Shown: positions 1 to 54,009 of the stretch, piece after piece
Layout of the letters: the number at the start of each line of letters is the position of its first letter
Numbering within the stretch: the first letter of the stretch is position 1
Source: Squalus acanthias
Taxonomy: Eukaryota
Length of the DNA: 64,000 nucleotides
NCBI GenBank assembly: GCA_030390025.1
Contig: CM059432.1
Span: 39,930,001-39,994,000 of the forward strand
Direction of reading: 5' to 3'
Position numbers and translations under genes: made by a program
The notes under the pieces: generated by a model
What the model was told of the DNA's origin: nothing
Databases searched by the model: none
The model's input: only the letters and a program-made list of their open reading frames with translations

Positions 1-662
1 TGGGCCTAACTTTATCTCCGGCTGCTTCTCTAACTCTCTTAGTTAAAGTCTTTATTCACATGGTTATCTATAATTATATTAATTCGTTTCTCTAGTTATG
101 TTAGAGAGAATAAAACACTAATACTCACTCACCAATCACCTTCCTGCAGTCCTGTGACGTCACTCCTTGCTTTTGCTGTTCTTTTGGAATTCGCCGGCCC
201 TGCACTCTCTATCCTGTGCTGCAGCCTCTGCTGCCCATTCCTCTCCGGTCCGCTGTCCTCGGGCCCCGTGCTCTTTATCCTGTGCTGCAGCCTCTGCTGC
301 CCATTCCTCTCCGGTCCGCTGTCCTCGGGCCCTGCGCTCTCTATCCTGTGCTGCAGCCTCTGCTGCCCATTCCTCTCCGGTCCTCGGGCCCCGCACTCTT
401 TATCCTGTGCTGCAGCCTCTGCTGCCCATTCCTCTCCGGTCCTCGGGCCCCGCACTCTTTATCCTGTGCTGCAGCCTCTGCTGCCCATTCCTCTCCGGTC
501 CGCTGTCCTCGGGTCCCGTGCTATTTATCCTGTGCTGCAGCCTTTGCTGCCCATTCCTCTCCGGTCCTCGGGCCCGGTGCTCTCTATCCTGTGCTGCAGC
601 CTCTGCTGCCCATTCCTCTCCGGTCCGCTGTCCTCGGGCCCCGTGCTCTTTATCCTGTGCTG
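1..662 (-). mobile_element. Probable 5' UTR of a CR1 LINE running leftwards out of the window
   Basis: 120-140 (aatactcactcaccaatca) resembles the reverse complement of the CR1 5' UTR motif at 21795-21826 (tgattgggtgagta...ggtgagtatt), followed by a similar AT-rich tract; TGACGTCA at 154-161. Confidence 0.5.
197..662. repeat. GC-rich minisatellite, about 7 units of about 66 bp or 59 bp
   Basis: Unit tatcctgtgctgcagcctctgctgcccattcctctccggtc(cgctgtc)ctcgggccc...ctct; the 7-bp insert is present in some units only; explains the repetitive ORFs in all frames. Confidence 0.95.
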
Positions 663-689
663 AAGTGTAATCAGTCAAAAAAAAAATCA

Positions 690-2560
690 ACATGGAGATA
701 TTAGGAAGGGTGACTAAAAATCTTTGGCGTAAGGGGTCGGTTTTAAGCCCAAGGAAAGGAGGTGGAGAGGCAGAGAGATATGGGAGAGAATGCCAGAGCT
801 TAGGGCCCAGACTGCTGATGGAGCAAAGGGAATGGGGAATGCACAGGAGGCCAGAGTTGGAGGAACACAAAGTTCTTGGAAAGTTACATGCTCGAGAAAG
901 ATACAGTGATAGGGAGGGACGTGGCCATGATGGATTTGAATACAAGGATGAGAATTTTAAATCTGATGCACTGGGGGGCCAGAAGAAAATGCAGCAAGAC
1001 CTGGACGACATTCAGGCTTGGGCTGATAAGTGGCAAGTAACATTCGCGCCATACAAGTGCCAGGCAGTAATAATCTTCAACAAGCGAGAGTCTAACCACT
1101 GCCCCTTGACATTCAATGGCATTACCATCGCTGAATCCCCCACCATCAACATCCTGGGGGGTCACTATTGACCAGAAACATAACTGGACCAGCCACATAA
1201 ATACTGTGGCAACAACAGCAGGTCAGAGGTTGGATATTCTGTGGCGAGTGTCTCACCTCTTGACTCCCCAAAGCCTTTCCACCATCTACAAGGCAGAAGT
1301 CAGGAGTGTGATGGAATACTCTCCACTTGCCTGGATGAGTGCAGCTTCAACAACACTCAAGAAGCTCGACACCATCCAGGACAAAGCAACTCACTTGATT
1401 GGCACCCCATCCACCACCTTAAACATTCACTCCCTCCACCCTGGCGCACCGTGGCTGCAGTGTGTACCATCTACAAGATACACTACAGCAACACGCCAAG
1501 GCTTCTTCGGCAGCACCTCCCAAACCCGCGACCTCTACCATCTAGAATGACAAAGGCAGTAGGCACATGGGAACACCACCACCTTCAAGATCCCCTCCAA
1601 GTCACACACCATCCTGACTTGGAAATGCATCGCCGTTCCTTCATCATTGCTGGGTCAAAATCCTGGAACTCCCTCCCTAACAGTACTGTGGGAGTACCTT
1701 CACCACAAGGACTGCAGCGGTTCAAGAAGGCAGCTCACCACCACCTTCTGAAGGGCAATTAGGGATGGGCAATAAATGCTGGCCTTGCCAGCGACGCTCA
1801 CATCCCATGAACGAATATTAAAAAAAGTCAGCAAGCACAGGGGTGATGGATCTGTAGGACTTGTGCAGCGTAGGATATGGGCAGCAGACTTTTGGATGGG
1901 CTGAAGTTTATGGAGGTTGGAGATTGGAGGTCGGTCAGGAGAGCATTAGAATAGTCAAATCTAGAGGTGACAATGGTTGGATGAGAGTTTCAACAGCAGA
2001 TTTGCTGAGGTGGGGTGGAGATCAGGTTTGGTAGAGGAGAGGAAGGCCAAAAAGTGCTTGATGTGGTCCAGCCAGATCTAGCAATGGATGACTAAACCAA
2101 TTTTACACCAGATACGCTCAAGTCTGTGCCCCTTGGACTTGAGGGAGTGAAGATGGGGGCCAAACCATTGAGAACAACCAGGCTTGGAGAGAGTAAGGGT
2201 TTTGCTGTGGGCAAGGGCATTAAAGATGGAGGCGAGAGAGTAGCTAAGCAAATTGACAACTACAGAAATATCATGGCAACTGGAGGGGCAAAGGGAGTTT
2301 GAAAGTGAAGTTGTAAGTGACTTGGGGGAGAGTTCTTTCCAGGGGCACACATAAAAGGAAGTGGGTTTGGAAGGGGGTAGGAGGATGTGAGTGGTGAGGG
2401 ATACAAGGAAGTGGTCAGTGATGCCTTATCTGTGATCGAGATGATGGGAGTAGAAAGGCCACATGAGACTGTTAGGTCAAAGGGCTGGCCGTGAATATGG
2501 GTAGGAGAGTTTATATGGAGGGAGAGATTAAGGCAGGGCAGTGAAATCAGTGGACAGAGG
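690..2560 (-). mobile_element. Decayed L2 LINE fragments, interrupted by the LINE at 985-1827
   Basis: Minus-strand remnants FKILILVFKS (884-1198 ORF) and SPTHIHGQPFDL (EN-like, 2260-2733 ORF); similar to the L2 3' end at 26960-27640. Confidence 0.65.
985..1827 (+). mobile_element. 3' fragment of a CR1-group (L2B/Zenon-like) LINE, same family as 14054-17468
   Basis: RT C-terminus QQDLDDIQAWADKWQVTF...YKAEVRSVMEYSPLAWMSA...LDTIQDKA; 3' tail gggcaattagggatgggcaataaatgctgg...catcccatgaacgaat followed by an A tract. Confidence 0.9.
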
Positions 2561-2854
2561 GTAACATGAGCTCTGATGGAAATTGACATCACTGAGGCTG
2601 AGGAATCGCTGAGTGCAGAAGCTGAAGCAGGAAAGGAGGGGGGATATCTCGGCCAGCAGCTAACATCGCTGAGAGTGAAGTTACAACAAAAAAGTGACTG
2701 CAGTGCACAGGTATGTGTCAGCCTCCATCCCAAGCTTTATAGAAATAGAGCTGTCACCATTTGGGAAAAGCTAGAAGTGATTTTTTTTTTGTGATGAACA
2801 ATCTGTGTCACTCTTATGCCTTAATTTTAATCTCAAAACTTTCATACAAAGAAA

Positions 2855-3179
2855 CTATTTCCTCTGGTGGGGGAATCAAGAACAAGGGCATATAATCTTT
2901 AAATTAAAGCTGGGCCATTCAGGAGCAAAATCAGGAATCACTTCTTCACACAAAGGGTCGTAGAAATTTGGAACTCTCTCTCCCAAAAGGCAGTGGATGC
3001 TAGGACAATTAAAGCTTTCAAGACTGAGATAGATAGATTTTTGTTAGGTAAGGGTATCAAGGGATATGGAGCAAAGGTGGAAAAATGAAGTTGAGGTGCA
3101 GATCAGCCATGCTCTAATTGAATGGTGGAGCAGGCCCAACGGGTTGAATGGCCTATTCCTGTTCCTAATGTTCCTATGA
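2855..3179 (+). mobile_element. CR1 LINE 3' end
   Basis: FFTQRVVEIWNSL motif, conserved CR1 3' UTR and ttcctatg-type tail. Confidence 0.85.
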
Positions 3180-3519
3180 AACATCTGGAGTTGTTAGTTT
3201 TAAAAGTGGCAAATGTCAAATTAAGTTACATTTTTAAACCAAAATAATGATTGAATGTCAGTCATAATGAGCGATGCTTGGCTACTCTGGAGAAGAAACT
3301 GTACTCTGAAACCATGTTGTGGCATGCCTATTTTTTAATTAATGTACAATATACTTCAATCCTTCCAATCTGTTAAATAACTTCTGATGGTGATCCAGTG
3401 CACCCAAGTTTCTAGCACATTTTGTAGGTCTGATGTGTGTTGAGTTCATAGGAGGACCGAGAGAACTCAATCTCATTCATACATGAACACTTATTAAACA
3501 GTTTTTGAATCCAAATAAC

Positions 3520-4919: not shown

Positions 4920-5810
4920 CAGTACCAGAAAATGAGACTCTCTTGGCCATCATGCTAGCCTTCACCATGCGCCTGAAAGCAAAGAAGAAAATAAAAATAG
5001 ACAGGAGCAGAAGATGGCACAGAGAGAGACCAAAGGTGCGATGAGTGAGAACAGAGTACAGAAGTGATGTGATGCTCTGGGAGTCTTTGTCAACACTAGC
5101 CCCCAGAGCCAAGATGGCAGACCTCTGAGCTTCCATGGCAACACTGTGAGCTGCCATGTAAGCTGTCAGAGCTGTCAGCTTGGTGGGAACCACTGTCATG
5201 TCCATGGAAATGACCATTCAGTCCGAGTTGGACAGAATGATTTCCATGCTCTGCGTGAAGCCTTGACACAAATTGGAGCTGGACTCCTCTGTGCTCTGAG
5301 CCAAATGTACACAAGGGGACTCTTGTGAGTAGTGAGGCTGGAAGTGGTGGAGATGTAAGAGGGCCGTATTCTTACATTGACAACTCTGGTGAGGGTATTA
5401 AACTTATTTGAGCATTGTAGCCATGTTCTAGGAGCTACGCTCCTGACATTGACCTCCTCAGCGATCTCTTCCCACTGGCGGTGGTGATATTGCCTGGAGG
5501 GCTTTCTGCCTCCTAGGGGAAACTGGATCACCCTCCTCCTGTCCACCACCTGGACCAGGGCCTCCAATGCAACCAGAGAACCTGAGTGCCCTTGCCTGGA
5601 CCTCTTGCAGCCATTTTCTTCAGTCTGGGAAGTTTCCTGTTGTCTGAGTGCACCTTCCCTTTAAAAGGTGCTGGATGTCTCTACATGGCGTCAGAGATGC
5701 CTGATTTACTTCGACGTACCACCCACCACCCGCACCCCCCCCCCCCCCCCCCCACCCCCCACCCCAACTAGGCATAAAGCCAAAGAATAGCCCGAGTAGT
5801 GCTGGCTGCA
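4920..5810 (-). mobile_element. Decayed Harbinger fragment with Myb/SANT-like exon
   Basis: ORF 5196-5567 ALVQVVDRRR..FP.GGRKP...WEEIAEEVN.RSVAPRTWLQC..KFN.LTRVV is homologous to exon 1 of the Myb gene at 50436. Confidence 0.8.
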
Positions 5811-6204
5811 CATCTACATAATTTTAATGTGGTCCCAGCATGGTCCCAGGGACCATGTGAATATGCACGTGCAGCGTGTGTCGCCCCCCTGAGCACCTGT
5901 TACAATGGGTTTTAAAAACATTTAAAACGGTTTGAGGAAAGTAATGGATTTTCCTATGGGAATACCCTTGTTTTTGTGTCATGAGGAGAAGAATGATGAG
6001 AATATGTAGAAGGTTGCCCAGGTCAAAAAACCAGGATAGATGTAGCATGGCCAATTACCAACCTCTCAGCCTCCTCACAATCATCAGTAAAGTGATTGAA
6101 GAAGTCATCAATAGTGTCATCAAGTGACACCCACTCACCAATAACCTGTTCACCAACACTCAGTTCAGATTCCACCAGACCTTTACAGCATTGATCAGGA
6201 TGTG

Positions 6205-9200
6205 GTAACAAGAGCTGACTGCCAGATAGAAATTAACAGGTTTGATCTAATAGCCATTACGGAGATGTGGTTGCAAAATGGCCAAGGTTGGGAACTAAAT
6301 ATTCCAGGATACTTAACTTTTAGAAGAGATAGGCAAAATGGAAAAGGAGGAGCGGTAGCCCTCATAATAAAGGATGGGATAAAGACAGTAGAGAGAAAGA
6401 ATCTTAGCTCCGAAAATCAAGAAGTAGAATCAGTTTGGGTGGAGCTACGAAACAGCAAGGGGCAGAAAACATTGGTGGGAGTTGTTTATAGGCCCCCAAA
6501 CAGTAGTTGTAATGTAGGGCAGAGTATAACTTCACAACATAGCTGTAGTATCAATCATTGGTCAAAAAACAGACCTTGTCATGATTTCAGTGCCATAGTG
6601 ACCAACTTTATACATTATTGACTAGTTTCATTGTATCACGTAAAAATTTGAAGTTAATTACAACCTACTGTTGAGTGGTTAAAAAATTACGTGTAACAAG
6701 GGTAATACAGTAATCATTGGGGACTTTAATCTACATATAGACTGGGCAAACCAAATTTGCAGTAATAGTGTGGAAGATGCATTCATGGAATGTATGCAAG
6801 ACAGTTTTCTAGATCAGTATGTTGAGGAACCAACTAGGGAACAGGCTATTTTAGATCTAGTATTATGCAACAAGAAAGGGTTAATTAATAACCTTGTAGT
6901 AAAGGGGTCCTTAGGGAAGAGTGGCCATAATATGATAGAATTTTATATTAAGTTTGAAAGTGATTTCGTTAAATCCGAAACTAGGGTCTTAAATCTAAAC
7001 AAAGCAAACTACGTAGGTATGAGGGGTGAGTTGGCTAAGGTAGATTGGGAAACTACATTAAAAGGTATGATGGTAGACAAGCAATGGCTAGCATTTAAAG
7101 AATTAATACATAATTTTCAACAAATATACATTCCTCTAAGGCACAAAAACCCCACAGGAAAAGTGGTCCAACCATGGCTAACAAGAGAAGTTAAAGATAG
7201 TATTAGATCAAAGGAAGAAGCTTATGATGTTGCCAAAAAGAGTAGTAAGCCTGAGGATTGGGAGGATTTTAGAATTCAGCAAAGGAGGATGAAGAAATTG
7301 ATAAAGAAAGGGAAAATTGAATATAAGAGTAAACTAGCGAAAGACATAAAAATAGATTGTAAAAGCTTCTATAGGTAAGTAAAAAGGAAAAGATTAGCGA
7401 AAGTAAATGTGGGTCCCTTACAGGCTGAGACATGAGAAGTTATAATGGGAAATAAGGAAATGGCAGAGAAATGAAACAAATACTTTGGGGGCATTTTTCT
7501 GACATCAGAGGAGGCGGGTTTGGAGGCGGGAAAGGCGGGAAAATCAGATTCAAAGAGGTCGGGTTCGGAACCCGCCTCCAACCCGCCTCCATGGGATTTT
7601 ACCGGTTTCAGGTTTGGAGGTTGAGAAACGCTCCTGCCTCCAGCTGGCCATTGCGCTATTTAACATCCTTAAATGCTCTTTCAGGGCCTCTCTAAGCCTA
7701 TTTTGAGAGGCCCTCGTGATTTTTCGAGCTTTTCGGTGTGATCCACGCAACTCCTAAACCATGGCAGGTAAACCTGGCGGGTTGACTCGTGGGTGGCCTC
7801 CTCACTGCTGCAGGTCTAACAAGACATCGTTTATTGCAGCAAGGATTACTTGCAGGTGCCAGACCTTGGCTTTAAAAGGTCTCTGAGCACTTTTAGAAGG
7901 CCTTCCAAAGTCGGAGGTGCTGCAGCTTGACTCCATCAACTGTGGGACCTCCTTGGAAGACCCTCTTCCCGCTTGCAATGAGCGCTTCCCCAAAGGAGGC
8001 ATCTACAAGCAGCATGGGAACCATTCGTTTTCTTTCTGCATGGACCTCAGATGAGGATGAGGAGGAGGAGGAGGAGGAGGATCTCGAGGAGGAGGAGGAG
8101 GAGGTCAGAGCCCGGGATGCAAGGGATGAACTTATCATGGCCAGATTTGCATAGGTTGCCCAAGTTGGCACATGTCCTTTGCTCCATCCTAGGACATCAT
8201 TGACAATGGACTCTCTGGCCTCCTTTCACTCAGGCCACCAACCTGACAACGCAAGTGTGGCGGTGCCCGCAATGTGGAGCTGCCTAAGGCAAAAGAACAG
8301 ATGGCATAACGCCAACATTTTGGTTTCAAATCATTTTAATGCTTTCCAACAGGGATGGCATTTCATCAATACACAGAAACAGTCTCCCAATCTGCACACA
8401 GATCTGGAGGTTATATCCCTTGCCAGCTGTACCCACACAGCCTTGGTTTCTTTGGCAGGCCTCTTCCTCCGAGATGAGTGGAAGAGCACCTCCATGCTAG
8501 CTGTCACCCCCTCCAACAACATTTGCAGCTCCTCAGCAGAGAGCCTCGGGTAGGCCATTGCCTTGGAATTGGACATAGTGATTTCTCAAAAGATGTTGGA
8601 GGTGGTGCAGGAGACACAGAAATGCTGTGGAATGAGCCAAGGGAGAAAGAAGCCATAAAATCAGACCTGGAAAAGTGCTGTCAACAGAGGCGAGTTTCAG
8701 TCTCAAAACACTAATTGAGAAAGGGCATCCCACACCTCTGAAATCAAGTGGCCAATCATGGGAAAATCGCAAATTTTTTAAACCTATCAGTGGAGGCGAG
8801 TTTCAAACCCACCCAAACTGAAACCCGCCTCCATCTCATATCCAGTGGGAAAATCGCCCCCAAGGTGTCTTTCTTCACGGAAGAAGACGCAATAAACTTC
8901 CCAGAAATAGTGGAGAACCAAGGTTCTAGCGAGAATGAGGAACTGAAAGAAATTAGTAAATTAGTATGGGGAATAAGGAAATGGCAAAGAAATTAAACAA
9001 AGGTAGCAAATGTAACCCCACTATTTAAGAAAGGAGGGAGAGAGAAAACGGGAAACTACAGACCAGTTAGCTTGACATCAGTAGTAGGGAAAATGCTAGA
9101 ATCTATTATTAAGGACTTGGTAACAGGGCACTTAGAAAATAATAATAGGATTGGGCAGAGTCAACATGGATTTATGAAAGGGAAATCGTGTTTAACAAAT

Positions 9201-9880
9201 CTGTTAGAGTTTTTTGAGGTTGTAACTAGCAGAATAGATAAGGGGGAACCAGTGGATGTGGTGTATTTGGATTTACAGAAGGCATTCGATAAGGTGCCAC
9301 ACAAGAGGTTATTAAACGAAATTAGGGCTCATGGGATTGGGGGTAATATACTAGCATGGATTGAGGATTGGTTAATGGACAGAAAAAAGAGTGTAGGAAT
9401 AAATTGGTCATTTTCGGGTTGGCAGGCTGTAACTAGTGGGGTACCGCAAGGATCAGTGTTTGGGCCTCAGCTATTCACAATCTACATCAATGATTTGGAT
9501 GAGGGGACCAAATGCAATATATCCAAGTTTGCTGATGATACAAAGCTGGGTGGGAATGTAAGCTGTGAGGAGGATGCAAAGAGGCTTCAAGGGGAAATAG
9601 ACAGGCTAAGTGAGTGGGCAAGAACATGGCAAATGGAATATAATGTGGAGAAATGTGAAAGTTATCCACTTAGGTAGGAAAAATAGAAAAGCAGTTTTTT
9701 TTAAATGGTGAGAGATTGGGAAATGTTGATCTTCAGAGGGACCTGAGTGTCCTTGTACACGAATCACTGAAAGTTAACATGCAGGTACAACAAGCAATTA
9801 GGAAAGCAAATGGTATGTTGGCCTTTATTCCAAGAGGATTTGAGTATAAGCATAAAGACATCTTACTGCAATTATATAGG
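6205..9880 (+). mobile_element. Decayed CR1 LINE ORF2 (APE endonuclease plus RT), interrupted by insertions at about 6530-6690 and 7487-8861
   Basis: DLIAITEMWL, GVVYRPPN, GDFN, ILDLVL, QHGFMKGKSCLTNLLEF, YLDLQKAFDKVPH, GVPQGSV, KFADD. Confidence 0.92.
7487..8861. mobile_element. Non-autonomous Harbinger inserted into CR1
   Basis: Ends GGGGGCATTTTTC / GAAAATCGCCCCC; Myb remnant on - (8331-8576, PRLSAEELQMLLEGV...VWVQLA); deleted transposase on + (7927-8154); CR1 sequence resumes after it; no clean TSD. Confidence 0.85.
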
Positions 9881-9965
9881 GCTGCCTTTGACATCAAGGC
9901 AGGATTTGACTGAGTATGGCACCAAAGAGCTTTAGCAAAACTGAAGTCAATGGGGGTCAAAGCGA

Positions 9966-10289: not shown

Positions 10290-13200
10290 TGAAGGGAAAA
10301 TTTAAGGATAAGGAAAGAGACATACACTAAGTACAAGGATAGCAGGGGAGAGCAAGACAAGGGATAATACAAAGCGACTGGGAGAGAAGTCAAAAAAAGC
10401 AATTAGGAAGGCAAAGAATGGCAGAAATATTAAATAATTATTTTGCTTAAGTATTTACCAGGAAGACAGATCAGGTGGACATGACATCAGGAGATAAGAT
10501 TAGAAATTATGTAACCACATTTAAAATAAAAGGAGGTGAAACATTAAATAAACTAATCAAACTCAAAGAGGATAAATCCCGGCTGTTGTGCTGAAGACTT
10601 GTGCTCCAGAACTAGCCGTACCTCTAACCAAGCAGTTGCAGTACAGCTACAACACTGAGATCTACCCGACAATGTGGAAAACTGTCGTGGTATGTCCTCT
10701 CCACAAAAAGTAGGACAAATACAAATCCAGCCAATTACCGCCCCATCAGTCTACTCTCAATCATCAGCAAAGTGATGTTGACAGTGCTATCAAGCAGCAC
10801 TTACTCACCAATAACCGGCTCACCAATGCTCAGTTTGGATTATTCGGCTCCAGATCTCATTACAGCCTTGGTCCAAACATGGACAAAAGAGCTGAATGCC
10901 AGAGATGAGGTGAGAGTGCCTGCCCTTGACATCAAGGCAGCATTTGACCGAGTGTGGCATCAAGGAACCCGAGTAAATTGAAATCAATGGGAATCAGGGG
11001 GATAACTCTCCACTTGCTGGAGTCATACCTAGCACAAAGGAAGATGGTTGTGGTTGTTGGAGGTTAATCATCTCAGCCACAGGACATTGCTGCAGGAGTT
11101 CCTCAGGGCAGTGTCCTAGGCCCAACCATCTTCAGCTGCTTCATCAATGACCTTCCCTCCATCATAAGGTCAGAAGTGGGATGTTGGCTGATGATTGCAC
11201 AGTGTTCAGTTCCATTCGCAACTTCTCAGATAATGAAGCAGTCCATGCCCGCATGCAGCAAGACCTGGACGGCATTCAGGCTTGGGCTGATAAGTGGCAA
11301 GTAACATTCGCGCCATACAAGTGCCAGGCAATGACCATCTCCAACCATCCCTTGACATTAAATGGCATTACCAGCGCCGAATCTCCCACCATCAAAATTC
11401 TGGGGGTCACCATTGATCAGAAACTTAACTAGACCAGCCACATAAATACTGTGGCTACAAAAGCTGGTCAGAGGCTAGGTATTCTGCGGCGAGTGTCTCA
11501 TCTCCTGACTCCCCAAAGCCTTTCCACCATCTACAAGGCGCAAGTCAGGAGTGTGATAGAATACTCTCCACTTGCCTGGATGAGTGCAGCTTCAACAACA
11601 CTCAAGAAGCTCGACACCATCCAGGACAAAGCAGCCTGCTTGATTGGCACCCCATCCACCACCTTAAACTTTCATTCCCTCCACCACCACGTACCGTGGC
11701 TGCAGTGTGTACCATCTACAAGATGCACTGCAGCAACTCGCCAAGGCTTCTTCGACAGCACCTCTCAAACCTGCGACCTCTACCATCTAGAAGGACAAGG
11801 GCAGCAGACGCATGGGAACACCATCACCACCAAGATCTCCTCCAAGTCACACACCATCCTGACTTGGAAATATATCATCGTTCCTTCATCGTCGCTGGGT
11901 CAAAATCCTGGAACTCCCTCCCGAACAGCGCTTAGAGAGTACCTTCACCACACGGACTGCAGCAGTTCAAGAAGACAGGACACCACCACCTTCTCAATGG
12001 CAATTAGGGATGGGCAATAAATGCTGGTCTTGCCAGCGACGCCCACATCCCATGAATGAATAAAAGAAAAAACTCCTGGTCCAGATGGATTGCATGATTA
12101 CATTTTAAAAGAATCTAGCGAAGAGATCGCAGAGGCTCTCTGACACATAATTAATAATTTGTTCAAAAAAATTGTAATGCCAGAGGACTGGCGGATAGCT
12201 AACGTTAAACCTATATTTAAGAACATGTCCAGGGAACTATAGGCCAGTCAGCTTAATATCGGTAGTGGGAAAAATAATGGAATCCCTATCAAAGGAGAAA
12301 ATAGAAAAGCATCTAGAAACCAAAAATATAATAATGAATAGTCAACATGGAATTCAAAAGGGTACTTGACCAACCTCAGCGAATCATTTCAAGAAGCAAC
12401 AGAGAGAGTAGACCAGGGTAACGTAGTAAATGTAATATATCGAGATTTCAAAAAGTCCTTCGATAAGGTACCAAATAATAGACGAATGGAGTCAGGAGAC
12501 AAGTAGCAGAATGGATAGCTAGCTGGCTGCAAGACAGAAAGCAGAGAGTAGGGGTAAAGGGTAGCTATTTAGAGTGGCAAGAGATAGGAAGTGGGGTCCC
12601 ACAAGGATTAATGCTGGGCCCACTGTTGTTAACAATTTATATTAATGATTTAGACCTTGGAATTAAAAAAACAATTTCTAAATTTGCGGACGACACCAAA
12701 TTGGGAGGGATAGTAAACACTGAGGAGGACTGCAACAAATTACAAGAAGACATTAATAAAGTTGCAGAATAGGCATATAATTGGCAAATGAATTTCAACA
12801 CAGTTAAGTGTGAGGTATTACATTTTGGTAAGAAAAATAAGGAGGTCACATATTACTTGGAAAATAAGAATCTAAATGGGGCAGAGGAGCAAACGGATCT
12901 AGGAGTACAAACACACAAATCACCAGAAGTTGTGACACAGGTCAATAAGGCCATAACAAAAGCAAACCAAGCACTAGGATTTATTTCTAAAGGGATAGAA
13001 TTAAAAAGTAGAGACGTTATGCTAAACTTGTATCAAACCTTGGTTAGACCACACTTGGAGTACTGTGTACAATTCTGATTGCCATACTATAAAAAGGATA
13101 TGGAGGCACTGGAGAGGGTGCAAAAAAAGATTTACAAGCTTGATACCAGAACTGCGAGGTTATACCCATCAGGAAAGGATGAACAGAGAAGCTGAGGGTG

Positions 13201-13563: not shown

Positions 13564-16500
13564 AGAAATTATCTAATCAGTGACCATTAAATGTGTCTTT
13601 TTTTTTAAAATGTTCCCTTATCTGAAAATGTTTGAAAATTCTTAGAAAGGTTTTTCGGAGGATGTCTATAATATGCAATCGGTACCAGTGCTAACTTCAG
13701 CTATTTCTCTTCAATGCCTAACTAACATTGAAGTGTTTATTTAAAAACGGCTTACACTGCCATCTAGCAGCTGGAACTGGAAAAGATAGTGGCTATTAAT
13801 TAATGTTGACAAATAATGTGCCAAACTAATGTTTTCAGATTTTTTTTTAATGGGGAAGTATTTGCATCTCCTGAAAATCCCAAAAATAAATTGATAATGG
13901 AAATGAAGCTCTCACAAATTCTATATAGGCAGTTTATGCTGGCCTAATAGATCCAATGGAAAATAGCACCTGAACTAGTGCAGTGGGGAGCCAGTGAATG
14001 GAATATTCTCCACCAGTACATTGGCAGGAATAAACCCACCAGTCAGAAGATCTTTTTTTTTCATTCACGGATTGTGGGCGTCGTTGCCAAGGCTAGCATT
14101 TATTGTCCATCACTACTTCTCCTTGAGAAGGTGGAGGTGAGCCGCCTTCTTGAACCGCTGTAGTCCGTGTGGTGAAGGTACTCCCACAGTGCTGTTGGGG
14201 AGGGAGTTCCAGGATTTTGACCCAGCGATGATGAAGGATCAGCGATATAGTTCCAAGTCAGGATGGTGTGTGACTTGGAGGAGAACTTGGAGGTGGTGGT
14301 GTTCCCATGCGCCTGCTGCCCTTGTCCTTCGAGGTGGTAGAGGCCGTGGGTTTGGGAAGTGCTGTCGAAGAAGCCTTGGCGAGTTGCTGCAGTGCATCTT
14401 GTAGATGGTACACACTGCAGCCACGATGCACTGGTGGTGGAGGGAGTGAATGTTTAAGGTGGTGGATGGGGTGCCAATCAAGCGGGCTGCTTTGTCCTGG
14501 ATGGTGTCGAGCTTCTTGGGTGTTGTTGGAGCTGCACTCATCCAGGCAAGTGGAGGGTATTCCATCACACTACTGACTTGTGCATTGTAGATAGTGGAAA
14601 GGCTTTGTGGAGTCAGGAGGTGAGACACTCACCACAGAATACCCAGCTGCTGGCCTGCTCTTGGAGCCACAGTATCTATGTGGCTGATCCAGTTAAGTTT
14701 CTGGTCAATGGTGATTCCCCCAGGATATTGATGGTGGGGATTTAACGATGGTAATCCCATTGAATGTCAAAGGGAGGTGGTTAGACTTTTTGTTGTTGGA
14801 AATGGTCATTGCCTGGTACTTATGTGACACGAATGTTACTTGCCACTCAGCTCAAGCCTGAATGTTGTCCAGGTCTTGCTGCAAGTGTGCACGGACTGCT
14901 TCATTATCTGAGGAGTTGCAAATGGAACTGAACACTGTGCAATCATCAGCGAATATCCCCACTTCTGATCTTACGATGGAGGGAAAGTCATTGAGGAAGC
15001 AGCTGAAGATGGTTGAGCCTAGAACACTGCCTTGAGGAACTCCTGCAGCGATGTCCTGGGACTGAGATGATTGGCCTCCAACAACCACAACCATCTTCCT
15101 TTGTGCTAGGTATGACTCCAGACAGTGAAGAGTTTTTCCCTGATTCCCATTGACTTCAATTTTACTAGGGCTCCTTGATGCCACATTCCGTCAAATGCTG
15201 CCTTGATGTCAAGGGCAGTCACTCTCACGTCACCTCTGGAATTCAGCTCTTTTTTCCATGTTTTGACCAAGGCTGTAATGAGGTCTGGAGCCAAGTGGTC
15301 CTGGCAGAACCTAAACTGAGCATTGGTGAGCAGGTTATTGGTGAGTAAGTGATGCTTGATAGCACTGTCAGTAACACCTTCCATCACTTTGCTGATGATT
15401 GAGAGTAGACTGCTGTGGCGGTAATTGGCCAGATTAGATTTGTCTTGCTTTTTGTGGACAGGACATACCTGGGCAATTTTCCACTTTGTCGGTAAATGCC
15501 AGTGTTGTAGCTTTCCTGGAACTGCTTGGCTCGAGGCGCGGCTAGTTCTGGAGCACAAGTCTTCAGCAGTACAGCCGGGATGTTGTCGGGGCCCATAGCG
15601 TTTGCTGTATCCAGTGCGCTCAGCCATTTCTTGATGTTACGCGGAGTGAATCGAATTGGCTGAAGACTGGCTTCTGTGATGGTGGGGACCTCAGGAGGAG
15701 GCCGAGATGGATCATCCACTCGGCACTTCTGGCTGAAGATGGTTGCAAATGCTTCAGCCTTGTCTTTTGCACTCACGTGCTGGGCTCCACCATCATTGAT
15801 GGTGGGGATGTCATGGAGCCTCCTCCTCCCGGTAGTTGTTTAATTGTCCACCAACATTCACGACTGGATGTAGCAGGACTGCTAGAGCTTGGATCTGATC
15901 CGTTGGTTGTGGGATCGCCTAGCCCTGTCTATAGCATGCTGCTTCCGCTGTTTAGCATACATGTAGTCCTATGTTGTAGCTTCACCAGGTTGGCACCTCA
16001 TTTTTACATACACCTGGTGATGCTCCTGGCATGCTCTTCTACGCTCCATATTGAACCAGGGTTGGTCCCCTGGCTTGATGGTAATGGTAGAGTGAGGAAT
16101 ATGCCGGGCCATGAGGTTACAGATTGTGGTGGAATACAATTCTGCTGCTGCTGCTGGCCCACAGCGCCTCATGGATGCCCAGTTTTGAGCTGCTAGATCT
16201 ATCCCATTTAGCACAGTGGTAGAACCACACAACATGATGGCGAATGTTCTCAGTGTGAAGACAGGACTTTATCTCCACAAGGACTGTCACTCCTACCAAT
16301 ACTGTCATGGACTGATGCATCTGTGACAGGTAGACTGGTGAGGACGAGGTCAAGTAGGTTTTTCCCTCATGTTGGTTCTCTCACCACCTGCCGCAGGCCC
16401 AGTCTGACAGTTATGTCCTTCAGGACTCGGTCAACTCAGTCAGCAGTGGTGCTACCGAACCACTCTTGGTGATGGACATTGAAGACCCTACCCAGAGTAC

Positions 16501-16895
16501 ATTCTGTGCCCTTGCTACCCTCAGTGCTTCTTCCAAGTGGTGCTAAACTGATTCATCAGCTGAGGGAGAGTGGTAAGTGGTAATTAGCAGGAGGTTTCCT
16601 TGCCCATATTTCACCTGATGCCATGAGACTTCATGGGGTCCGGAGTCAATGTTGAGGACTCCCAGGGCCACTTCCTCCCAACTGTAATGCTGCCACCTCT
16701 GGTTGGACAGGACATACCATGAGATAGTAATGGAGGAGTCTGGGACGTTGCCTGAAAGGTATAATTCTGTGAGTATGACTATATCAGGCTGTTGCTTGAC
16801 TAGTCTGTAGGACAACTCTCCCAATTTTGGCACAAGTCCCCAGATGTTAGTGAGGAGGACTTTGCAAGGTCAACTGGGCTGGGTGTGTCTTTGCC

Positions 16896-17058
16896 CAATG
16901 GTCCCGTTAAGCCGCGCGGCCACGCAGCACTCTGGAGGTCCTGTGCAGGCCACTCACCGGCTTTACAATCGAAAAACCGCACCTGCGCAGTAATTTGAAT
17001 GGGTCACGCAGCCCGTTAAGGGAGCTGCACGTCCCCCAAAAAATTAGAGGGTACATTG
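16896..17058. mobile_element. hAT-type MITE inserted into the LINE 5' region
   Basis: TIRs CAATGGTCCCGTTAA / TTAGAGGGTACATTG; imperfect 8-bp TSD tctttgcc / cctttgtc. Confidence 0.75.
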
Positions 17059-17384
17059 CCTTTGTCATGTCCGAATCCGGTGCCTAGTTTGATGCCTGGT
17101 GATCCATCCAGTTTTATTCTTATTACAGTTTTTCGTCATGGTTTTGATACAACTGAGTGGCTTGCGAGGCCATTCAAGGGCAGTTAAGAGTCAACCACAT
17201 TGCTGTGGGTCTGGAGTCACATATGGGCCAGACCGGGTAAGGACGGCAGATTTCTTCCCTAAAGCAGTGAACCAGATGGGTTTTTACGACAATCCAGTAG
17301 TTTCATGATCACCATTACTGAAACTAGCTTTTTATTCCAGATTTATTTAATTAATTAAACATAAGTTCCCCCTGCTGCCGTGGT

Positions 17385-17468
17385 GGAATTTGAACTCGTG
17401 TTTCCAGTTCCTTCATCCAGGCCTTTGGATTGCTAGTCCAATAACATAACCACTATGCTACCGTACCC
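17385..17468 (-). promoter_or_regulatory. tRNA-derived internal Pol III promoter (A box 17450-17462, B box 17385-17397)
   Basis: Minus strand reads GGTACGGTAGCATAGTGGTT...GAGTTCAAATTCCACC, matching type 2 A/B box consensus at tRNA-like spacing. Confidence 0.75.
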
Positions 17469-23159: not shown

Positions 23160-25959
23160 GAAGGCTCTGTGTCTTAAAGCATTCATAATAAGGTGGATGA
23201 ATTAGCTGTGCAAATAGATGTAAATGGATATGATATAATTGGGATTACGGAGACATGGCTCCAGGGTGACCAAGGCTGGGAATTCAACATCCAGGGGTAT
23301 TCAATATTCAGGAAGGACAGGCAAAAAGGAAAAGGAGGTGGGGTAGCATTGCTGGTTAAAGAGGAGATAAACACAATAGTATGGAAGGGTATTAGTTCTG
23401 ATGATGTGGAATCTGTATGGGTAGAGCTGCGAAATACCAAGGGGCAGAAAACATTAGTGGGAGTTGTATACAGACCCCCAAACAGTAATGCTGAGGTTGG
23501 GGATGGCATTAAACGGGAAATTAGAGATGCATGCAATAAGGGCACAGCAGTTATCATGGGTGACTTTAATCTACATATAGATTGGGCTGACCAAATTAGT
23601 AACAATACTGTGGAGGAGGAATTCCTAGAGTGTATACGGGATGGTTTCCTGGACCAATATGTCGAGGAACCAACTAGAGATCAGGCCATCTTAGACTGAG
23701 TATTATGTAATGAGAAAGGATTAATTAGCAATCTTGTTGTGCGAGGACCCTTGGGGAGGAGCGATCATAATATGATAGAATTCTTCATTAAGATGGAGAG
23801 TGATGTAGTTGACTCAGAGACTAGGGTCCTGAATTTAAATAAAGGAAACTACGATGGTATGAGGTGTGAGTTGGCTAGAATGGATTGGGGAACGTTACTT
23901 AAAGGGTTGACGGTGGATAGGCAATGGCAAACATTTAAAGATTGCATGGATGAACTACAGAATTTGTTCATCCCTGTTTGGCATAAAAATAAAACAAAAA
24001 ATGTGACACAACCGTGGCTAACAAGGGAAATTAGGGATAGCATAAGATCCAAGGAGAGGACATATAAATTGGCCAGAAAAAAGCAGCAATCCTGAGGATT
24101 GGGAGCAGTTTAGGATTCAGCAAAGGAGAACAAAGGGATTAATTAAGAGGGGGAAAATAGAGTATGAGAGTAAGCTTTCAGGGAACATAAAAACTGACTG
24201 TAAAAGCTTCTGTAGATATGTGAAGAGAAAAAGATTGGTGAAGTCAAGCGTAGGTCCCTTGCAGTCAGAATCAGGGGAATTTATAATGGGGAACAAAGAA
24301 ATGGCAGACCAATTAAATACATACTTTGGTTCTGTCTTCACAAAGGAGGACACAAATAACCTCCCAGAGATGTCGGGGAACATAGGGTCTAATGAGAGGG
24401 AGGAATTGAATGAAATCACTATTTGTAGGGAAATGGTGTTAGGGAAATTGATGGGATTGAAGGCTGATAAATCCCCAGGGCCTGATAATCTACATCCTAG
24501 GGTACTTAAGGAAGTGGCCCTAGAAATAGTAGATGCATTGCTGGTCATCTTCCAAAATTCTATAGACTCTGGAACAGTTCCCATGGATTGGAGGGTAGCT
24601 AATGTAACCCCACTATTTAAAAAAGGTGGTAGAGAGAAAATGGGGAATTATAGACCAGTAAGCCTGACATCGGTAGTGGGGAAAATGCTAGAGTCCATTA
24701 TAAAAGATGTAATAGCAGAGCACTTGGAAAACAGTGACAGGATCGGACAAAGTCAACATGGATTTACAAAAGGTAAATCATGCTTGACTAATCTACTGGA
24801 ATTTTTTGAGGATGTAACTGGTAGAATAGATAAGGGGGAACCAGTGGATGTGGTGTATTTGGACTTTCAGAAGACTTTCGATAAGGTCCCGCATAAGAGA
24901 TTAGCGTGCAAAGTTAAAGCACATGGGATTGGGGGTAAGGTACTGTCTTGAATAGAAAACTGGTTGGCAGACAGGAAGCAAAGAGTTGGAATAAACGGGT
25001 CTTTTTCCGAGTGGCAGGCAGTGACTAGTGGGGTACCGCAGGGATTGGTGCTAGGACCCCAGTTATTCACAATATATATTAATGATCTAGACGAGGGAAC
25101 TAGATGTGATATCTCCAAGTTTGCAGACGACACAAAGTTGGGTGGGCGTGTGTGCTGTGAGGAGGATGCAGAGAAACTCCAGTATGATTTGGACAGGTTG
25201 GGTGATTGGGCAGATGCATGGCAGATGCAGTATGATGTGGATAAATGCGAGGTTATCCACTTTGGTGGCAAAAACAGGAAGGCAGATTATTATCTGAACG
25301 GCAATAGATTGGGAAAAGGGGAAGTGCAACAAGACCTGGGTGTCCTTGTGCACCAGTCGCTGAAGGTAAGCATGCAGGTGCAGCAGGCGGTTAAGAAGGC
25401 AAATAGTATGTTGGCCTTCATAGCGAGAGGATTCAAGTACAGGAGCAAGGATATCTTGCTGCAGTTGTACAGGGCCTTGGTGAGACCACACCTCGAGTAT
25501 TGTGTGCAGTTTTGGTCGCCTTATCTGAGGAAGGATGTTTTTGCCATGGAGGGAGTGCAGCGAAGATTCACCAGACTGATACCTGGGATGGCTGGAATGA
25601 CATATGAAGAGAGATTGGGTCAATTGGGCTTGTATTCGCTAGAGTTTAGAAGAATGAGAGGGGATCTCATTGAAACTTATAAAATTCTAACAGGACTAGA
25701 CAGACTAGATGCAGGAAGGATGTTCCCAATGGTGGGGGAGTCCAGAACCAAGGGTCACAGTCTAAGGATAGGGGTTAAGCCATTTAGGACTGAGATGAGG
25801 AGGAATTTCTTCACCCAGAGAGTGGTGAACCTGTGGAATTCTCTACCACAGAAGACAGTTGAGGCCAATTCATTAAATATATTCAAGAAGGAGTTAGATA
25901 TATTTCTTAAGGCTAAGGGGATCAAGGGATATGGGGAGAAAGCAGGGACAGGGTACTGA
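23160..25959 (+). pseudogene. CR1 ORF2 (endonuclease plus reverse transcriptase), disrupted
   Basis: ORF pieces 23193-23699, 23739-24095, 24220-24951 and 24964-25959; TGA in place of Trp at 23697 and 24949; a frameshift near 24080. Confidence 0.92.
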
Positions 25960-28890: not shown

Positions 28891-29064
28891 ACGTCAATGA
28901 TGTCTCTTGTGGAAAATGATGGCCATTTGAAGATGAGATAGTTCCTCAAGCAACGAAATCTTCTGATTGAGCCCAATCGGTGGAATCAACTGGAAGCGCT
29001 CGCACACGGTATCTTTGTACCTGGTGTCAGAACTTTGGAGAGCCGTATCTTTCCGGGAGAAGTC

Positions 29065-30063
29065 ATGGTGGATGAATTGCAGCAAACCAGCTGCAGCATC
29101 TGCTGCTGCACCTTCATGGGCAAAATGCTAACTGTCATCTTCATGATCTTACTGACCCTCGCTATTCTGCTTGGCAACCTGGTGACTTTGGTCGTGTTCT
29201 TAGGCTTCAAGCGCGCCTGCACCCCTCAGGGCTACCTGAAGGTTTCTCTGGCAGTGGCCGATCTGGCTGTTGGCGTTCTCGTGGTCCCATTTTCCGTCTA
29301 CGCGGAGATACTCCTCCTGCTGAAAAAATCGTCTACAGACTGGGAGGGGGACACTTTATTTAGCGACTATTTCCAGCCCTGCACGGTGATTGGGACGGTC
29401 TACGCCGGCTGCACCCTGGTCTCCATCAGCACCATCTTTCTACTGACCCTCGAAAGAAGCATCGCCATCCTGAAGCCCCTGCACAAAGAGGCGGTGATTA
29501 CCAGAAAGAGAACATTGTCCCTGATTGGCATCTCCTGGTTTGCCAGTTTCTTCCTAGCCGTGTCCCCTCTGATATTTGGCGAGGGGATCGTGCTCCAATA
29601 TAACCCCTGCAGTCGAATGTGTAACTTCGCCTTGGTAGCCGGGAAGTTGCCTCAGGATGGCTGGAAAATTCTGCTGCTTTTCCCAGCTTTTGATTTCACA
29701 CTCCTGGGAGGGACGGTGGCGATAAACATTTTATCTTTCAGCAGTATTCGGCAGTACTCCAAACAGAGGAAACTGATGGCGAAAAGCAAGTTGTCCCGCC
29801 CATCGTTTTCCGACATCAAAGCTGCAAAAATCATCGCGACTCTGACTCTCGCCTTCACAGCTTCCTTCAGCCCCATCGCGGTGTTCGTGGTGGGAAACGT
29901 CCTGGGATATCAATGGTGTGACTTCTCCTTTTTCGCCTTTTGGATCCTGACTTCAAACAGTTGCTGGAACGTGATCATTTACAGCGTTAGAGATCAGAAA
30001 TTCCGGCAACGGGCGCTGGCGTTGTTGGCCCTCTCCAAACCGGCCGCCTCCTCGGACAGCTAG
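29065..30063 (+). CDS. Orphan class A (rhodopsin-like) GPCR, single coding exon, about 332 aa from the first in-frame ATG
   Basis: Seven hydrophobic segments; TM1 GN, TM2 LAVADL, TM3 Cys and ERS (DRY position), TM4 W, ECL2 Cys, TM6 FTASFSP, TM7 NSCWNVIIY, helix 8 DQKFR; intact frame in a repeat-free, CpG-retaining island. The ORF-track start at 29035 is a TTG. Confidence 0.92.
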   Translation: MVDELQQTSCSICCCTFMGKMLTVIFMILLTLAILLGNLVTLVVFLGFKRACTPQGYLKVSLAVADLAVGVLVVPFSVYAEILLLLKKSSTDWEGDTLFSDYFQPCTVIGTVYAGCTLVSISTIFLLTLERSIAILKPLHKEAVITRKRTLSLIGISWFASFFLAVSPLIFGEGIVLQYNPCSRMCNFALVAGKLPQDGWKILLLFPAFDFTLLGGTVAINILSFSSIRQYSKQRKLMAKSKLSRPSFSDIKAAKIIATLTLAFTASFSPIAVFVVGNVLGYQWCDFSFFAFWILTSNSCWNVIIYSVRDQKFRQRALALLALSKPAASSDS

Positions 30064-53908: not shown

Positions 53909-54009
53909 ATTCTCTTTGCCAGAAAAGTAATGAGGTACAGCAACTAAAGTAGCAGCAAAGTTAGGATGAACTAGGCAAAACTACCTCACAAAGCGTTGAG
54001 TCAATGTAG

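Follow-up and report, generated by a model that had tools for sequence, protein, structure and literature searches.

The window analysed here is a stretch of 64,000 nucleotides from the genome of Squalus acanthias. A decayed LINE lies on its minus strand and begins at 17468 with the bases GGGTACGG; two 5'-truncated sister copies of the same family were found on the plus strand (Table 1). With the insert taken out, 448 nt lie between the start of the head and the LLTNIWG codons, in agreement with the spacing of about 450 bp between head and endonuclease given in the original prediction. The insert itself had been labelled a MITE. Its status as a later, foreign insertion of a dispersed repeat of ~160 bp is borne out: none of the 28 other copies spanning the site carries it, and 39 further full-length matches (78-85%) exist in the genome. 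The terminal inverted repeats expected under that label, however, were searched for in the 163 bp and not found.

Table 1. Features of the LINE copy and its sister copies, in positions of the window
Feature	Position	Strand	Basis or remark
Decayed LINE, whole element, ~3.26 kb	17468-14053	minus	one reading frame (endonuclease + reverse transcriptase)
tRNA-derived head, element 5' end	17382..17468	-	sequence; 79 other copies aligned
A box TAGCATAGTGG, from element position +9	17450..17460	-	near-invariant over 79 aligned copies
B box GAGTTCAAATTCC, from +73; GAGTTCAAATCCC in most copies	17385..17397	-	sequence, alignment
5' untranslated region, split by insert	16858..17381	-	
Foreign 163-bp dispersed repeat, landed later than LINE copy	16894..17056	.	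missing from other copies
Decayed endonuclease-then-reverse transcriptase frame	14113..16857	-	motifs in three frames; Pfam
LLTNIWG, first codon	16857	-	
AFDGMW	15198	-	
GVPQGSV	15043	-	
FADDC	14953	-	
Stop TAG	14115-14113	-	
3' untranslated region, short	14053..14112	-	
AATAAA	14104-14099	-	
A9 tail	14061-14053	-	
Sister copy, 5'-truncated	10576..12065	+	element positions 1737-3263, 86% identity
Sister copy, 5'-truncated	990..1827	+	element positions 2435-3266, 87% identity

The protein motifs of the window copy are spread over three frames, so this copy is frameshifted. Pfam RVT_1 was recognized in its ORFs 15106-15636 and 14852-15190, as well as in two other copies, L065 and L035 (86.6 bits in the latter). 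The endonuclease was identified in other copies, where all three open segments covering the region matched Exo_endo_phos (profile positions 4-225 of 225) and Exo_endo_phos_2. The family frame follows a leader of about 340 nt, has ~950 codons and encodes an apurinic-type endonuclease followed by a reverse transcriptase. Among the 101 other places scored, the longest open frame reached 874 aa of about 950, nine places had at least 800 aa, and an intact full-length frame was not seen. The original prediction could assign no in-frame ATG in the decayed copy, and across 39 copies of the family none is conserved either: eight have one in the main frame, at six different places. A 77-codon upstream frame, with its ATG at 17200-17198 on the minus strand, overlaps the main-frame start. 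The context of this ATG is kept in 40 of 55 copies, and at least 74 codons are kept in 14 of those 40. A check by eye for a canonical slippery heptamer revealed none.

The predicted A and B boxes of the tRNA-like head could both be located. About 53 nt separate the end of the A box from the start of the B box in the window copy and in the aligned copies, and the two boxes lie at tRNA-like spacing from the element start and from each other, which is the geometry of a type-2 Pol III promoter. The Rfam tRNA model matched the head in 5 of 20 less decayed loci, at 25.5-26.6 bits, under the cut-off of 29, and did not match the decayed window copy. The matches cover model positions 7-64, that is the D arm, the anticodon arm and the T arm with a 22-nt insertion. 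ARAGORN called no tRNA over the window and only one in the 36 loci of the family, missing 35. On reading the sequence, no acceptor-stem pairing was seen between the first bases and those past the T arm.

Is this head a property of the family or of a single copy? Two unbiased genome samples were drawn, one with the 5' part of the ORF only as a query and one with a younger copy. Of the 29 other loci retrieved with the ORF-only query, 19 extend as far as the head start and 10 are 5'-truncated within the element. With the younger copy, all 39 other places match unbroken into the endonuclease at 91-95% identity; the match starts in the first 7 query bases in 25 of them and at bases 10-55 in 14. All 29 loci compared have a head piece whose start lies at element bases 9-22, and in 28 of them it is joined straight to the ORF with no 163-bp insert. 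The joint of head, leader and ORF is base-identical in every copy reaching it. Attachment of the head in this copy only, a one-off SINE-LINE juxtaposition, had been named in advance as the outcome that would speak against the prediction, and both samples show that it is not the case.

Upstream of the head there is nothing in common. Among 79 aligned copies none continues past the head and the 5' flanks are unrelated, so there is no ORF1, as had been predicted; the flanks downstream of the A tail are likewise unrelated between copies. Unrelated flanks in the 79 copies, 5' truncation in 10 of 29 loci and the A tail are signs of independent insertion. Of 13 copies in which both ends are present, 12 showed no target-site duplication of at least 6 nt lying at most 5 nt from the start, and the remaining one has a weak ATATAT match as a candidate. 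The family is abundant, with thousands of copies.

The same genome has a SINE of 436-483 bp, also abundant, which has the same head and corresponds to the LINE without its interior (about positions 353-3123). The parts shared with the LINE are the 5' part up to about element position 340, with the insert removed, and the last ~140 nt. The LINE reading frame enters this shared tail and stops ~60 nt ahead of the A tail. The LINE unit has a tRNA-related head of SINE type (SINE2), yet it is long and coding, and only the deletion form of 436-483 bp is non-coding and in the size range of a SINE, about 100-700 bp. In a tree built from the first 330 nt, 37 rows form a group that has no SINE among them (support 91/92), and 34 of the 48 LINE rows belong to it. 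On this tree the LINE label changes 11 times, against a mean of 21.0 after shuffling, and none of 500 shuffles was equally low. This separation from the SINE rows indicates that the head has been inherited along LINE lineages.

The second peculiarity is the shortage of T runs on the sense strand. Outside the insert, the window element has no run of four or more T (T4+) in 3258 nt, against 5.7 expected with independent bases, so the T4-free sense strand of ~3.25 kb noticed earlier by eye is real; a T6 and a T5, the sole such runs on the LINE sense strand, both lie inside the 163-bp insert. The sister copies, also described beforehand as free of T4+, indeed contain none, and the ordinary CR1-like copies of the window, whose T4+ runs include those predicted at 9210 and 24802, carry 19 over 3739 nt and 4 over 2782 nt. 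Dinucleotide-preserving shuffles gave a mean of 3.36 T4+ for the window copy, with 64 of 2000 reaching 0, and 2.48 for its LINE-only part, with 118 of 2000 reaching 0. At about 0.03-0.06 in these strict shuffles, the window copy alone is only marginally significant. One control CR1 copy was also low (4 T4+ against 8.35, with 76 of 2000 shuffles as low).

The counts for the family cover 87 other loci in addition to the window copy. Pooled over 136,214 nt from about 85 copies, there are 26 T4+ runs against 221.9 expected, a total that reduces to few ancestral sequences because the copies are related. Runs of the other bases were observed and expected as follows: A 746 and 682.5, G 354 and 284.8, C 273 and 519.4. 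No T4+ site is common to more than 7% of copies, and 17 A4+ sites are common to at least half. The depletion extends over the LINE-only part (15 against 140.1) and is equally strong in the SINE-shared leader (10 against 93.3). TCTTT and TATTT, described as minimal mammalian Pol III terminators in part of PMC8466645, are also rare (17 against 75.8 and 16 against 81.8), with no site in 30% or more of the copies. Without a T4+, TCTTT or TATTT site common among copies, the unit is free of shared internal Pol III terminators.

The coding sequence follows the same pattern. In 12 open ORF segments (10,824 nt) only two T4+ runs remain; synonymous-codon shuffling of these segments gave a mean of 8.4, with 0 of 300 shuffles as low, and codon-order shuffling a mean of 10.4, with 1 of 300 as low. 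T|T codon junctions number 47 against 111.7 expected, and phenylalanine is encoded by 24 TTT and 52 TTC codons. In contrast, CR1-like LINEs from this genome, for which 69 of 150 segments (33,487 nt) were retained, have 129 T4+ runs where 91.2 would be expected; their T|T junctions number 135 against 136.7. The signal survives the codon-aware nulls, and these control LINEs are undepleted, which was the comparison proposed in the original prediction. We also considered T depletion as a trait of the wider clade of the protein, and this was ruled out, since 48 metagenome relatives have 693 T4+ against 545 expected. The matched stretch is T4-free in only two of the 48, L109 (1795 nt) and L139 (2378 nt). 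A pair of A and B boxes was found upstream in none of the 34 relatives having upstream sequence, while the same pattern matches 15 of 29 family copies.

The signal is graded. The ratio of observed to expected runs is 0.92 for T2, 0.57 for T3 and 0.13 for T4, a maximal-order Markov null gives 30 occurrences of the word TTTT against 59.5 expected, and the T4 signal weakens under nulls that already account for the overall scarcity of TT and TTT. Every T-rich pentamer is low, beyond the known terminators, and C runs are low as well, at 0.53, which leaves room for a general compositional habit.

A LINE with a tRNA-like head, without ORF1 and without T4 runs is thereby confirmed as real and family-wide: the anatomy, the fixed 5' end, the inheritance of the head in LINE lineages and the strand-specific depletion of T clusters, absent from the controls, are all observed. 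If so, then we can ask: Which polymerase makes its RNA? From the sequence we cautiously favour the reading that the head is a type-2 Pol III promoter which would drive the whole coding element, its T clusters having been purged for read-through. The head would act as an internal promoter as in tRNA-derived SINEs, and transcription would begin on its first base. With TTTT, TCTTT and TATTT kept off the sense strand, Pol III could read the full 3.26 kb, and the full-length RNA would be reverse-transcribed into new copies. Protein might be translated directly from the uncapped Pol III RNA or be supplied by other transcripts in trans, and the SINE partner would be the LINE unit minus its interior. 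That Pol III is the polymerase, that its full-length RNA is the template of retrotransposition, and how protein is obtained are points which we infer. The original reading of a coding retrotransposon on a captured tRNA promoter, with terminators avoided, is supported to this extent, and none of the three contrary outcomes named with it occurred.

A wider version of this reading, which we hold tentatively and at somewhat less than even chances, takes the family as an autonomous coding retrotransposon that has switched its polymerase, a 'giant SINE'. It would have a 3.3-kb Pol III genomic RNA, enzymes made from uncapped RNA without a conventional AUG or in trans, a dispensable ORF1, and a SINE formed by internal deletion. 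Such a genomic RNA would be, to our knowledge, the longest natural Pol III transcript. The absence of ORF1 would then follow, since Pol III transcripts would not need it. On the side of translation, the absence of a conserved ATG and the uncapped state that a Pol III RNA would have count against the Pol III reading. According to part of PMC2666806, Alu made by Pol III needs ORF2p and not ORF1p, and the Pol II-made Alu transcript needs ORF1p; this dependence on the polymerase fits an element without ORF1. As for protein, luciferase activity from a Pol III promoter has been reported in PMC5703244, where Gunnery and Mathews 1995 is given as the source for the production of functional mRNA by Pol III.

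We regard it as rather unlikely, although deserving serious weight, that the element is an ordinary Pol II LINE. Here the head and leader would be a passenger swapped with the SINE, in either direction, by recombination or template switching, the Pol II start would fall on the first base of the head by chance, and the T shortage would be a compositional habit unlinked to termination. LINEs are regarded as Pol II transcripts in the parts of PMC10886601 and PMC5786205 that treat them, the element requires a translatable RNA, and its tail with AATAAA and an A run resembles those of Pol II LINEs. The T depletion, graded without a sharp step at four, accompanied by low C runs and marginal by the strict nulls on one copy, would suit such a habit. 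However, this habit would have to act on one strand, leaving A runs normal, be equally strong in ORF and non-coding leader, reach the synonymous and codon-junction level, and spare the CR1-like LINEs of the same genome and 46 of the 48 relatives. An added head, moreover, would be lost in progeny unless transcription started at or before its first base, yet a head with a sharp common start persists through subfamily diversification. In the SINE, this head forms an internal Pol III promoter complete in itself, and full-length copies of the LINE therefore carry one.

HDV-like ribozymes define the 5' ends of R2 and some RTE elements. Self-cleaving ribozymes are reported at LINE 5' ends in six clades in part of PMC5786205, and the exact 5' end at tRNA position +1, common to the copies, would suit a head working as an RNA-processing signal, at whose first base a co-transcript from a host promoter is cut, for example by RNase P. 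We consider this very improbable: the Rfam match is limited to the middle of the tRNA model and acceptor-stem pairing was not seen, the strand-specific loss of T clusters would be left unexplained, and the SINE partner, which shares this head, is built like a classic Pol III SINE. A chance or nested juxtaposition of two separate elements, or targeting of the SINE by the family, has a negligible probability and was rejected, for, abundant as the SINE with this head is, the joints are identical in all copies reaching them, the flanks before the head and after the tail are unrelated, the LINE frame runs into the shared tail, and no second tail is seen beyond the LINE's own A tail.

How does a LINE on a putative Pol III promoter compare with known systems? 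Standard autonomous LINEs such as L1, CR1 and jockey have an internal Pol II promoter. They share with the present family the endonuclease and reverse transcriptase frame, frequent 5' truncation, a short A tail and thousands of copies. Unlike them, the present family carries tRNA-type A and B boxes right at its 5' end, lacks both ORF1 and a conserved ATG, and has no ancestral T4+, TCTTT or TATTT on its sense strand; the CR1-like LINEs of the same genome have none of these peculiarities of head and T content. Our literature search found no earlier description of a tRNA-headed coding LINE.

The closest likeness in architecture is given by the bipartite tRNA-derived SINEs whose partners are RTE and Vingi elements (Kojima 2018, PMC5786205, in part), since the partner SINE there also joins its head to the LINE 5' leader and the LINE 3' end. 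In that work only the SINE has the head and the autonomous LINE is taken as a Pol II unit, whereas here the coding LINE itself has it; SINEs are stated there to be unable to encode a protein. The single frame, the very short 3' end and the bipartite derivative of our family resemble the build of the RTE or Vingi clade. The TRIMp3 elements Cassandra, Helenus and Ajax (Kojima 2024, PMC10886601, in part) are LTR retrotransposons with Pol III promoters derived from 5S RNA or tRNA, and so another case of a non-SINE retrotransposon with a promoter of small-RNA origin, but they are non-coding and 311-1263 bp long, against a coding element of 3.26 kb. In that source the poor processivity of Pol III is given as the reason why their autonomous partners must depend on Pol II. 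By the same author's argument, weak processivity keeps such elements at or below about 1.3 kb, which counts against a 3.26-kb Pol III unit.

Pol III transcripts of the T+ SINEs (B2, Dip, Ves) are polyadenylated via AATAAA according to part of PMC8466645, and our element is similar in having AATAAA near the 3' end together with a Pol III-type head. In these SINEs the signal is followed by a terminator that the SINE itself provides (TCTTT, TATTT or TTTT), whereas none lies within the present element. In sharks and rays, the tRNA-derived SINE HE1 and its partner LINE HER1 have a common 3' end (Ogiwara et al. 1999, via part of PMC3747384, where HE1 is listed as a V-SINE); their likeness to the present pair is one of description.

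In textbooks, and in the relevant parts of PMC5786205 and PMC10886601, non-LTR elements are split into LINEs, which are coding Pol II units, and SINEs, which are non-coding and length-limited by Pol III. If the Pol III reading is true, a coding LINE with a SINE-type promoter and 3.26 kb purged of Pol III stops would break this rule. It would also provide a natural system for studying the reach of Pol III and the translation of an uncapped RNA without a clear AUG, and would test whether the polymerase sets the need for ORF1, as cell-culture work described in part of PMC2666806 suggested. A simple origin would be offered for the SINE, too, which would have arisen from its own LINE by deletion, with no separate capture of a head. 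Repeat annotation is prone to splitting such elements into a 'SINE plus 5'-truncated LINE'.

It is useful to trace the family outside the window. The family and its SINE-type joints (14154|17177 and 14194|17143) are present in contigs from four organisms. Its full-length protein relatives have 23-36% identity, and homologous fragments with 63-86% identity were found in shark and ray gene models, among them those of Heptranchias, Heterodontus, Pristiophorus, Scyliorhinus and Mobula.

How is the retrotransposon copy on the minus strand of the window built? It begins with a tRNA-derived head, followed by a leader and a main frame with reverse-transcriptase motifs. Since these motifs occupy three different frames, the copy is frameshifted. 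Pfam recognised RVT_1 in it, and a complete Exo_endo_phos domain together with RVT_1 in open segments of other family copies. The distance from the head start to the first recognisable residues of the main frame is 448 nt with an insert removed, in agreement with the first estimate. This 163-bp insert in the leader is missing from 28/28 other copies spanning the site. It belongs to a dispersed repeat distinct from the LINE, for which a genome search of 3225 first-look candidates gave 39 other full-length matches (78-85%); CCCGTTAAG occurs in it twice, as internal direct repeats, and it brings T6 and T5 runs to the LINE sense strand. The original prediction had called it a foreign MITE; its foreign nature stands, while the MITE label is unconfirmed because terminal inverted repeats were looked for in it and none were found.

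Coordinates of the LINE copy, the CR1-like controls and other features in the window
Feature	Window position	Strand
Decayed retrotransposon, single copy	17468-14053	-
Element 5' start GGGTACGG	from 17468	-
A box TAGCATAGTGG	17460-17450	-
B box GAGTTCAAATTCC	17397-17385	-
77-codon frame overlapping the main frame (likewise in family copies L002-L060)	17200-16970	-
Inserted 163-bp repeat	16894-17056	
Main frame, first recognisable residues LLTNIWG, downstream of leader	from 16857	-
Reverse-transcriptase motif AFDGMW	15198	-
Reverse-transcriptase motif GVPQGSV	15043	-
Reverse-transcriptase motif FADDC	14953	-
Stop codon of main frame	14115-14113	-
AATAAA, then A9 tail at element end	14104-14099 (AATAAA)	-
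CR1-like LINE control, endonuclease + RT (Pfam), 19 sense-strand T4+	6145-9883	+
CR1-like LINE control, endonuclease + RT (Pfam), 4 sense-strand T4+	23178-25959	+
Open 373-aa frame, full rhodopsin-family 7tm_1 domain (E 1.7e-25)	28942-30063	+
Open 410-aa DDE_Tnp_4 transposase frame in G+C-rich stretch	52748-53980	-
Myb/SANT-like frame adjoining the DDE_Tnp_4 frame, same G+C-rich stretch	50418-51179	+
Further Myb/SANT-like fragment	5196-5660	-

The head is tRNA-derived yet degenerate: its Rfam matches stay below the cut-off, its acceptor stem is unmatched and ARAGORN called a tRNA in 1/36 loci. ARAGORN found no tRNA in the window, nor did Rfam in the head of the window copy. Heads of copies with less decay gave a match to the Rfam tRNA model in 5/20 loci (25.5-26.6 bits, cut-off 29), aligning the D arm, the anticodon arm (loop CUAGUAA) and the T arm, with a 22-nt insertion within the variable region. 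Degenerate heads of this kind are common among SINEs. In one family copy, L039, two heads lie head-to-head on opposite strands with about 30 nt between them (2183-2381 of that locus), and these are the only heads called by ARAGORN, as Ile-AAT (73 nt) and Thr-AGT (93 nt).

The head could have been attached by chance to the window copy, so we searched the same 3.71-Gb genome. With a query from head to endonuclease, the head piece began at element bases 9-22 (base 1 being the head start) in 29/29 other loci and was joined directly to the ORF region in 28/29; in 15 loci the match reached the end of the ~1500-nt locus. As such a query is biased toward joined copies, the search was repeated with 394 nt of the ORF only. 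Here 19/29 other loci reached element base 23 or lower, 10/29 were 5'-truncated at element bases 31-369, and in none of the 29 did the copy extend upstream beyond the head. When 79 other head copies were aligned, they had a sharp common start and unrelated upstream DNA. When the query was taken from a younger copy (its 5' 931 nt), 39/39 other places matched in one piece to the endonuclease at 91-95% identity; the match started within the first 7 query bases in 25 of them and at bases 10-55 in 14. By these last two queries the head belongs to the family and not to the window copy alone, as predicted. The predicted lack of ORF1 is also borne out: copies start at the head with unrelated DNA upstream, which leaves no space for an ORF1, nor was any remnant of it seen.

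The head alone, used as a query, found mainly short elements: in about 16 of 29 loci head and leader run straight into the LINE's final 100-140 nt, and 6/29 are LINE copies. Eight complete SINE partners measure 440-483 bp by one measurement and 436-470 bp by another; they consist of the first ~340 nt of the LINE joined to the part of its 3' end that begins near position 3124. The tail is LINE-derived, since the LINE frame continues into it. Passages of Kojima (PMC5786205) describe the same 'bipartite' build for partners of RTE and Vingi; in contrast to those, the autonomous element here also bears the head. A 73-row tree was built from the first 330 nt; its bootstrap was unsettled and most of its forks were unsupported. 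In it, 34/48 LINE rows fell within a group of 37 containing no SINE rows (support 91/92), and the LINE label changed 11 times against a shuffled mean of 21.0 (0/500 shuffles as low). LINE-specific head variants exist, which shows that the head has been passed along LINE lineages and not re-borrowed each time. The SINE may have arisen by deletion, or else the headed LINE by recombination with a SINE.

The second character of the family is its scarcity of T clusters. As the original prediction had noted, the window copy has no run of four or more T (T4+) on the sense strand: 0 in 3258 nt at 21.8% T, against 5.7 expected for independent bases, with 19 A4+ runs. The pooled set of ~85 other copies (136,214 aligned nt) held 26 T runs of this length against 221.9 expected (A, 746 against 682.5; G, 354 against 284.8; C, 273 against 519.4), although the copies are related and the pooled counts thus reflect a few ancestors. 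The 26 runs lie at 19 places, 14 of them single-copy, and because none is common to more than 7% of copies, the family ancestors lacked T4+ runs; 17 A4+ sites are common to at least half of the copies. Depletion rises with run length (observed/expected 0.92 for T2, 0.57 for T3, 0.13 for T4, 0.11 for T5), and runs of T6 or longer number 0 against 10 expected. The SINE-shared leader (10 against 93.3) and the LINE-only part (15 against 140.1) are depleted equally strongly. The pentamers TCTTT and TATTT, which in mammalian SINEs act as minimal Pol III terminators (PMC8466645), number 17 against 75.8 and 16 against 81.8 expected, and no such site is common to at least 30% of family copies.

Could codon usage account for this? 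In twelve segments that are open by nature (10,824 nt; they overlap and belong to a single frame) there are 2 T4+, against means of 8.4 in synonymous-codon shuffles (0/300 as low) and 10.4 in codon-order shuffles (1/300 as low). Their T|T codon junctions number 47 against 111.7 expected, and Phe is encoded by TTT 24 times and TTC 52 times. For comparison, eleven CR1-like segments from this genome gave 30 T4+ against 35.6 and 32.9 in the respective shuffles, 135 T|T junctions against 136.7, and 72 TTT and 50 TTC codons; in cleaned controls TCTTT and TATTT reach 1.60 and 1.23 times expectation. The T4 scarcity thus holds against codon shuffles and controls. The signal is weaker under a null that retains the low TT/TTT content (TTTT 30 against 59.5). 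Dinucleotide shuffles reached zero T4+ in 64/2000 cases for the window copy and 118/2000 for its LINE-only part. Every T-rich pentamer is low in the family, terminators and others alike, and one control CR1 copy is low as well (4 T4+ against 8.35).

Which polymerase would make such an RNA? The head can be retained in new copies only if the template RNA begins no further downstream than the head's first base. With a type-2 Pol III promoter, transcription begins a few bases before the A box, and all family copies do begin at just this point; the promoter being internal, every full-length copy would bear it. On the simplest reading, Pol III makes the LINE template RNA, and lineages that gain a terminator cease to propagate. 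Two papers make this reading less far-fetched: luciferase activity was obtained from a Pol III promoter, though such RNAs are uncapped (PMC5703244), and Pol III-made Alu RNA requires ORF2p and not ORF1p (PMC2666806). Translation is the weak point of the Pol III reading. No conserved in-frame ATG follows the last stop of the main frame: 8/39 copies have one, and these lie at 6 places. Upstream, a 77-codon frame from a conserved GCAATGTGG overlaps the first ~57 codons of the main frame in another frame, an arrangement that resembles RTE elements, where the first frame is short and overlapping. The protein may instead be supplied in trans by other transcripts.

Fragments with 63-86% identity occur within gene models of several sharks and one ray. 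An alignment of seven distant full-length relatives was used to scan metagenome contigs; of the 80 loci obtained, 48 were tabulated. Over matched stretches of 1278-2910 nt these 48 carry 693 sense-strand T4+ against 545 expected. Two are T4-free, L109 (0 against 2.5) and L139 (0 against 4.5); both are contigs of one project, and their 5' ends lie outside the contigs. The A+B box pattern is present in 15/29 family copies against 0/34 upstream regions of relatives, and it had no match in all 557,662 nt of the relatives' loci. An ORF1-like upstream frame of 331-523 aa precedes 15/34 relatives; 11/34, some with little upstream DNA, have no upstream frame above 92 aa, and Rfam found no tRNA in these 11. 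In the closest of the relatives, L136 (33-41% identity), the 1120 nt upstream hold no frame above 42 aa, and T4 content is normal (16 against 15.2). Among the relatives compared, this LINE family alone thus combines the head with freedom from T clusters. On metagenome contig L092 a tRNA-Ile (GAT) gene (1965-2039) on the opposite strand, probably a neighbouring gene, precedes a 5'-truncated relative of the LINE protein by 64 nt.

The observation of a tRNA-headed LINE with a T4-free sense strand is confirmed. Its interpretation as a coding LINE in which terminators are avoided, with Pol III as the candidate polymerase, is supported at the level of sequence comparison. Copies within one subfamily are 91-95% alike, and open frames of at least 800 aa were found in 9/101 other places (a 406-aa segment being scored), the longest having 874 of ~950 aa. 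Full-text literature searches turned up no LINE with a tRNA-derived head, and reviews give the opposite rule (PMC5786205, PMC10886601). The family may have been catalogued already without the head being noted.

Elsewhere in the window, the 7tm_1 frame is apparently an intronless GPCR gene among repeats. The DDE_Tnp_4 frame and the Myb/SANT-like frame beside it look like a two-gene PIF/Harbinger-type DNA transposon.
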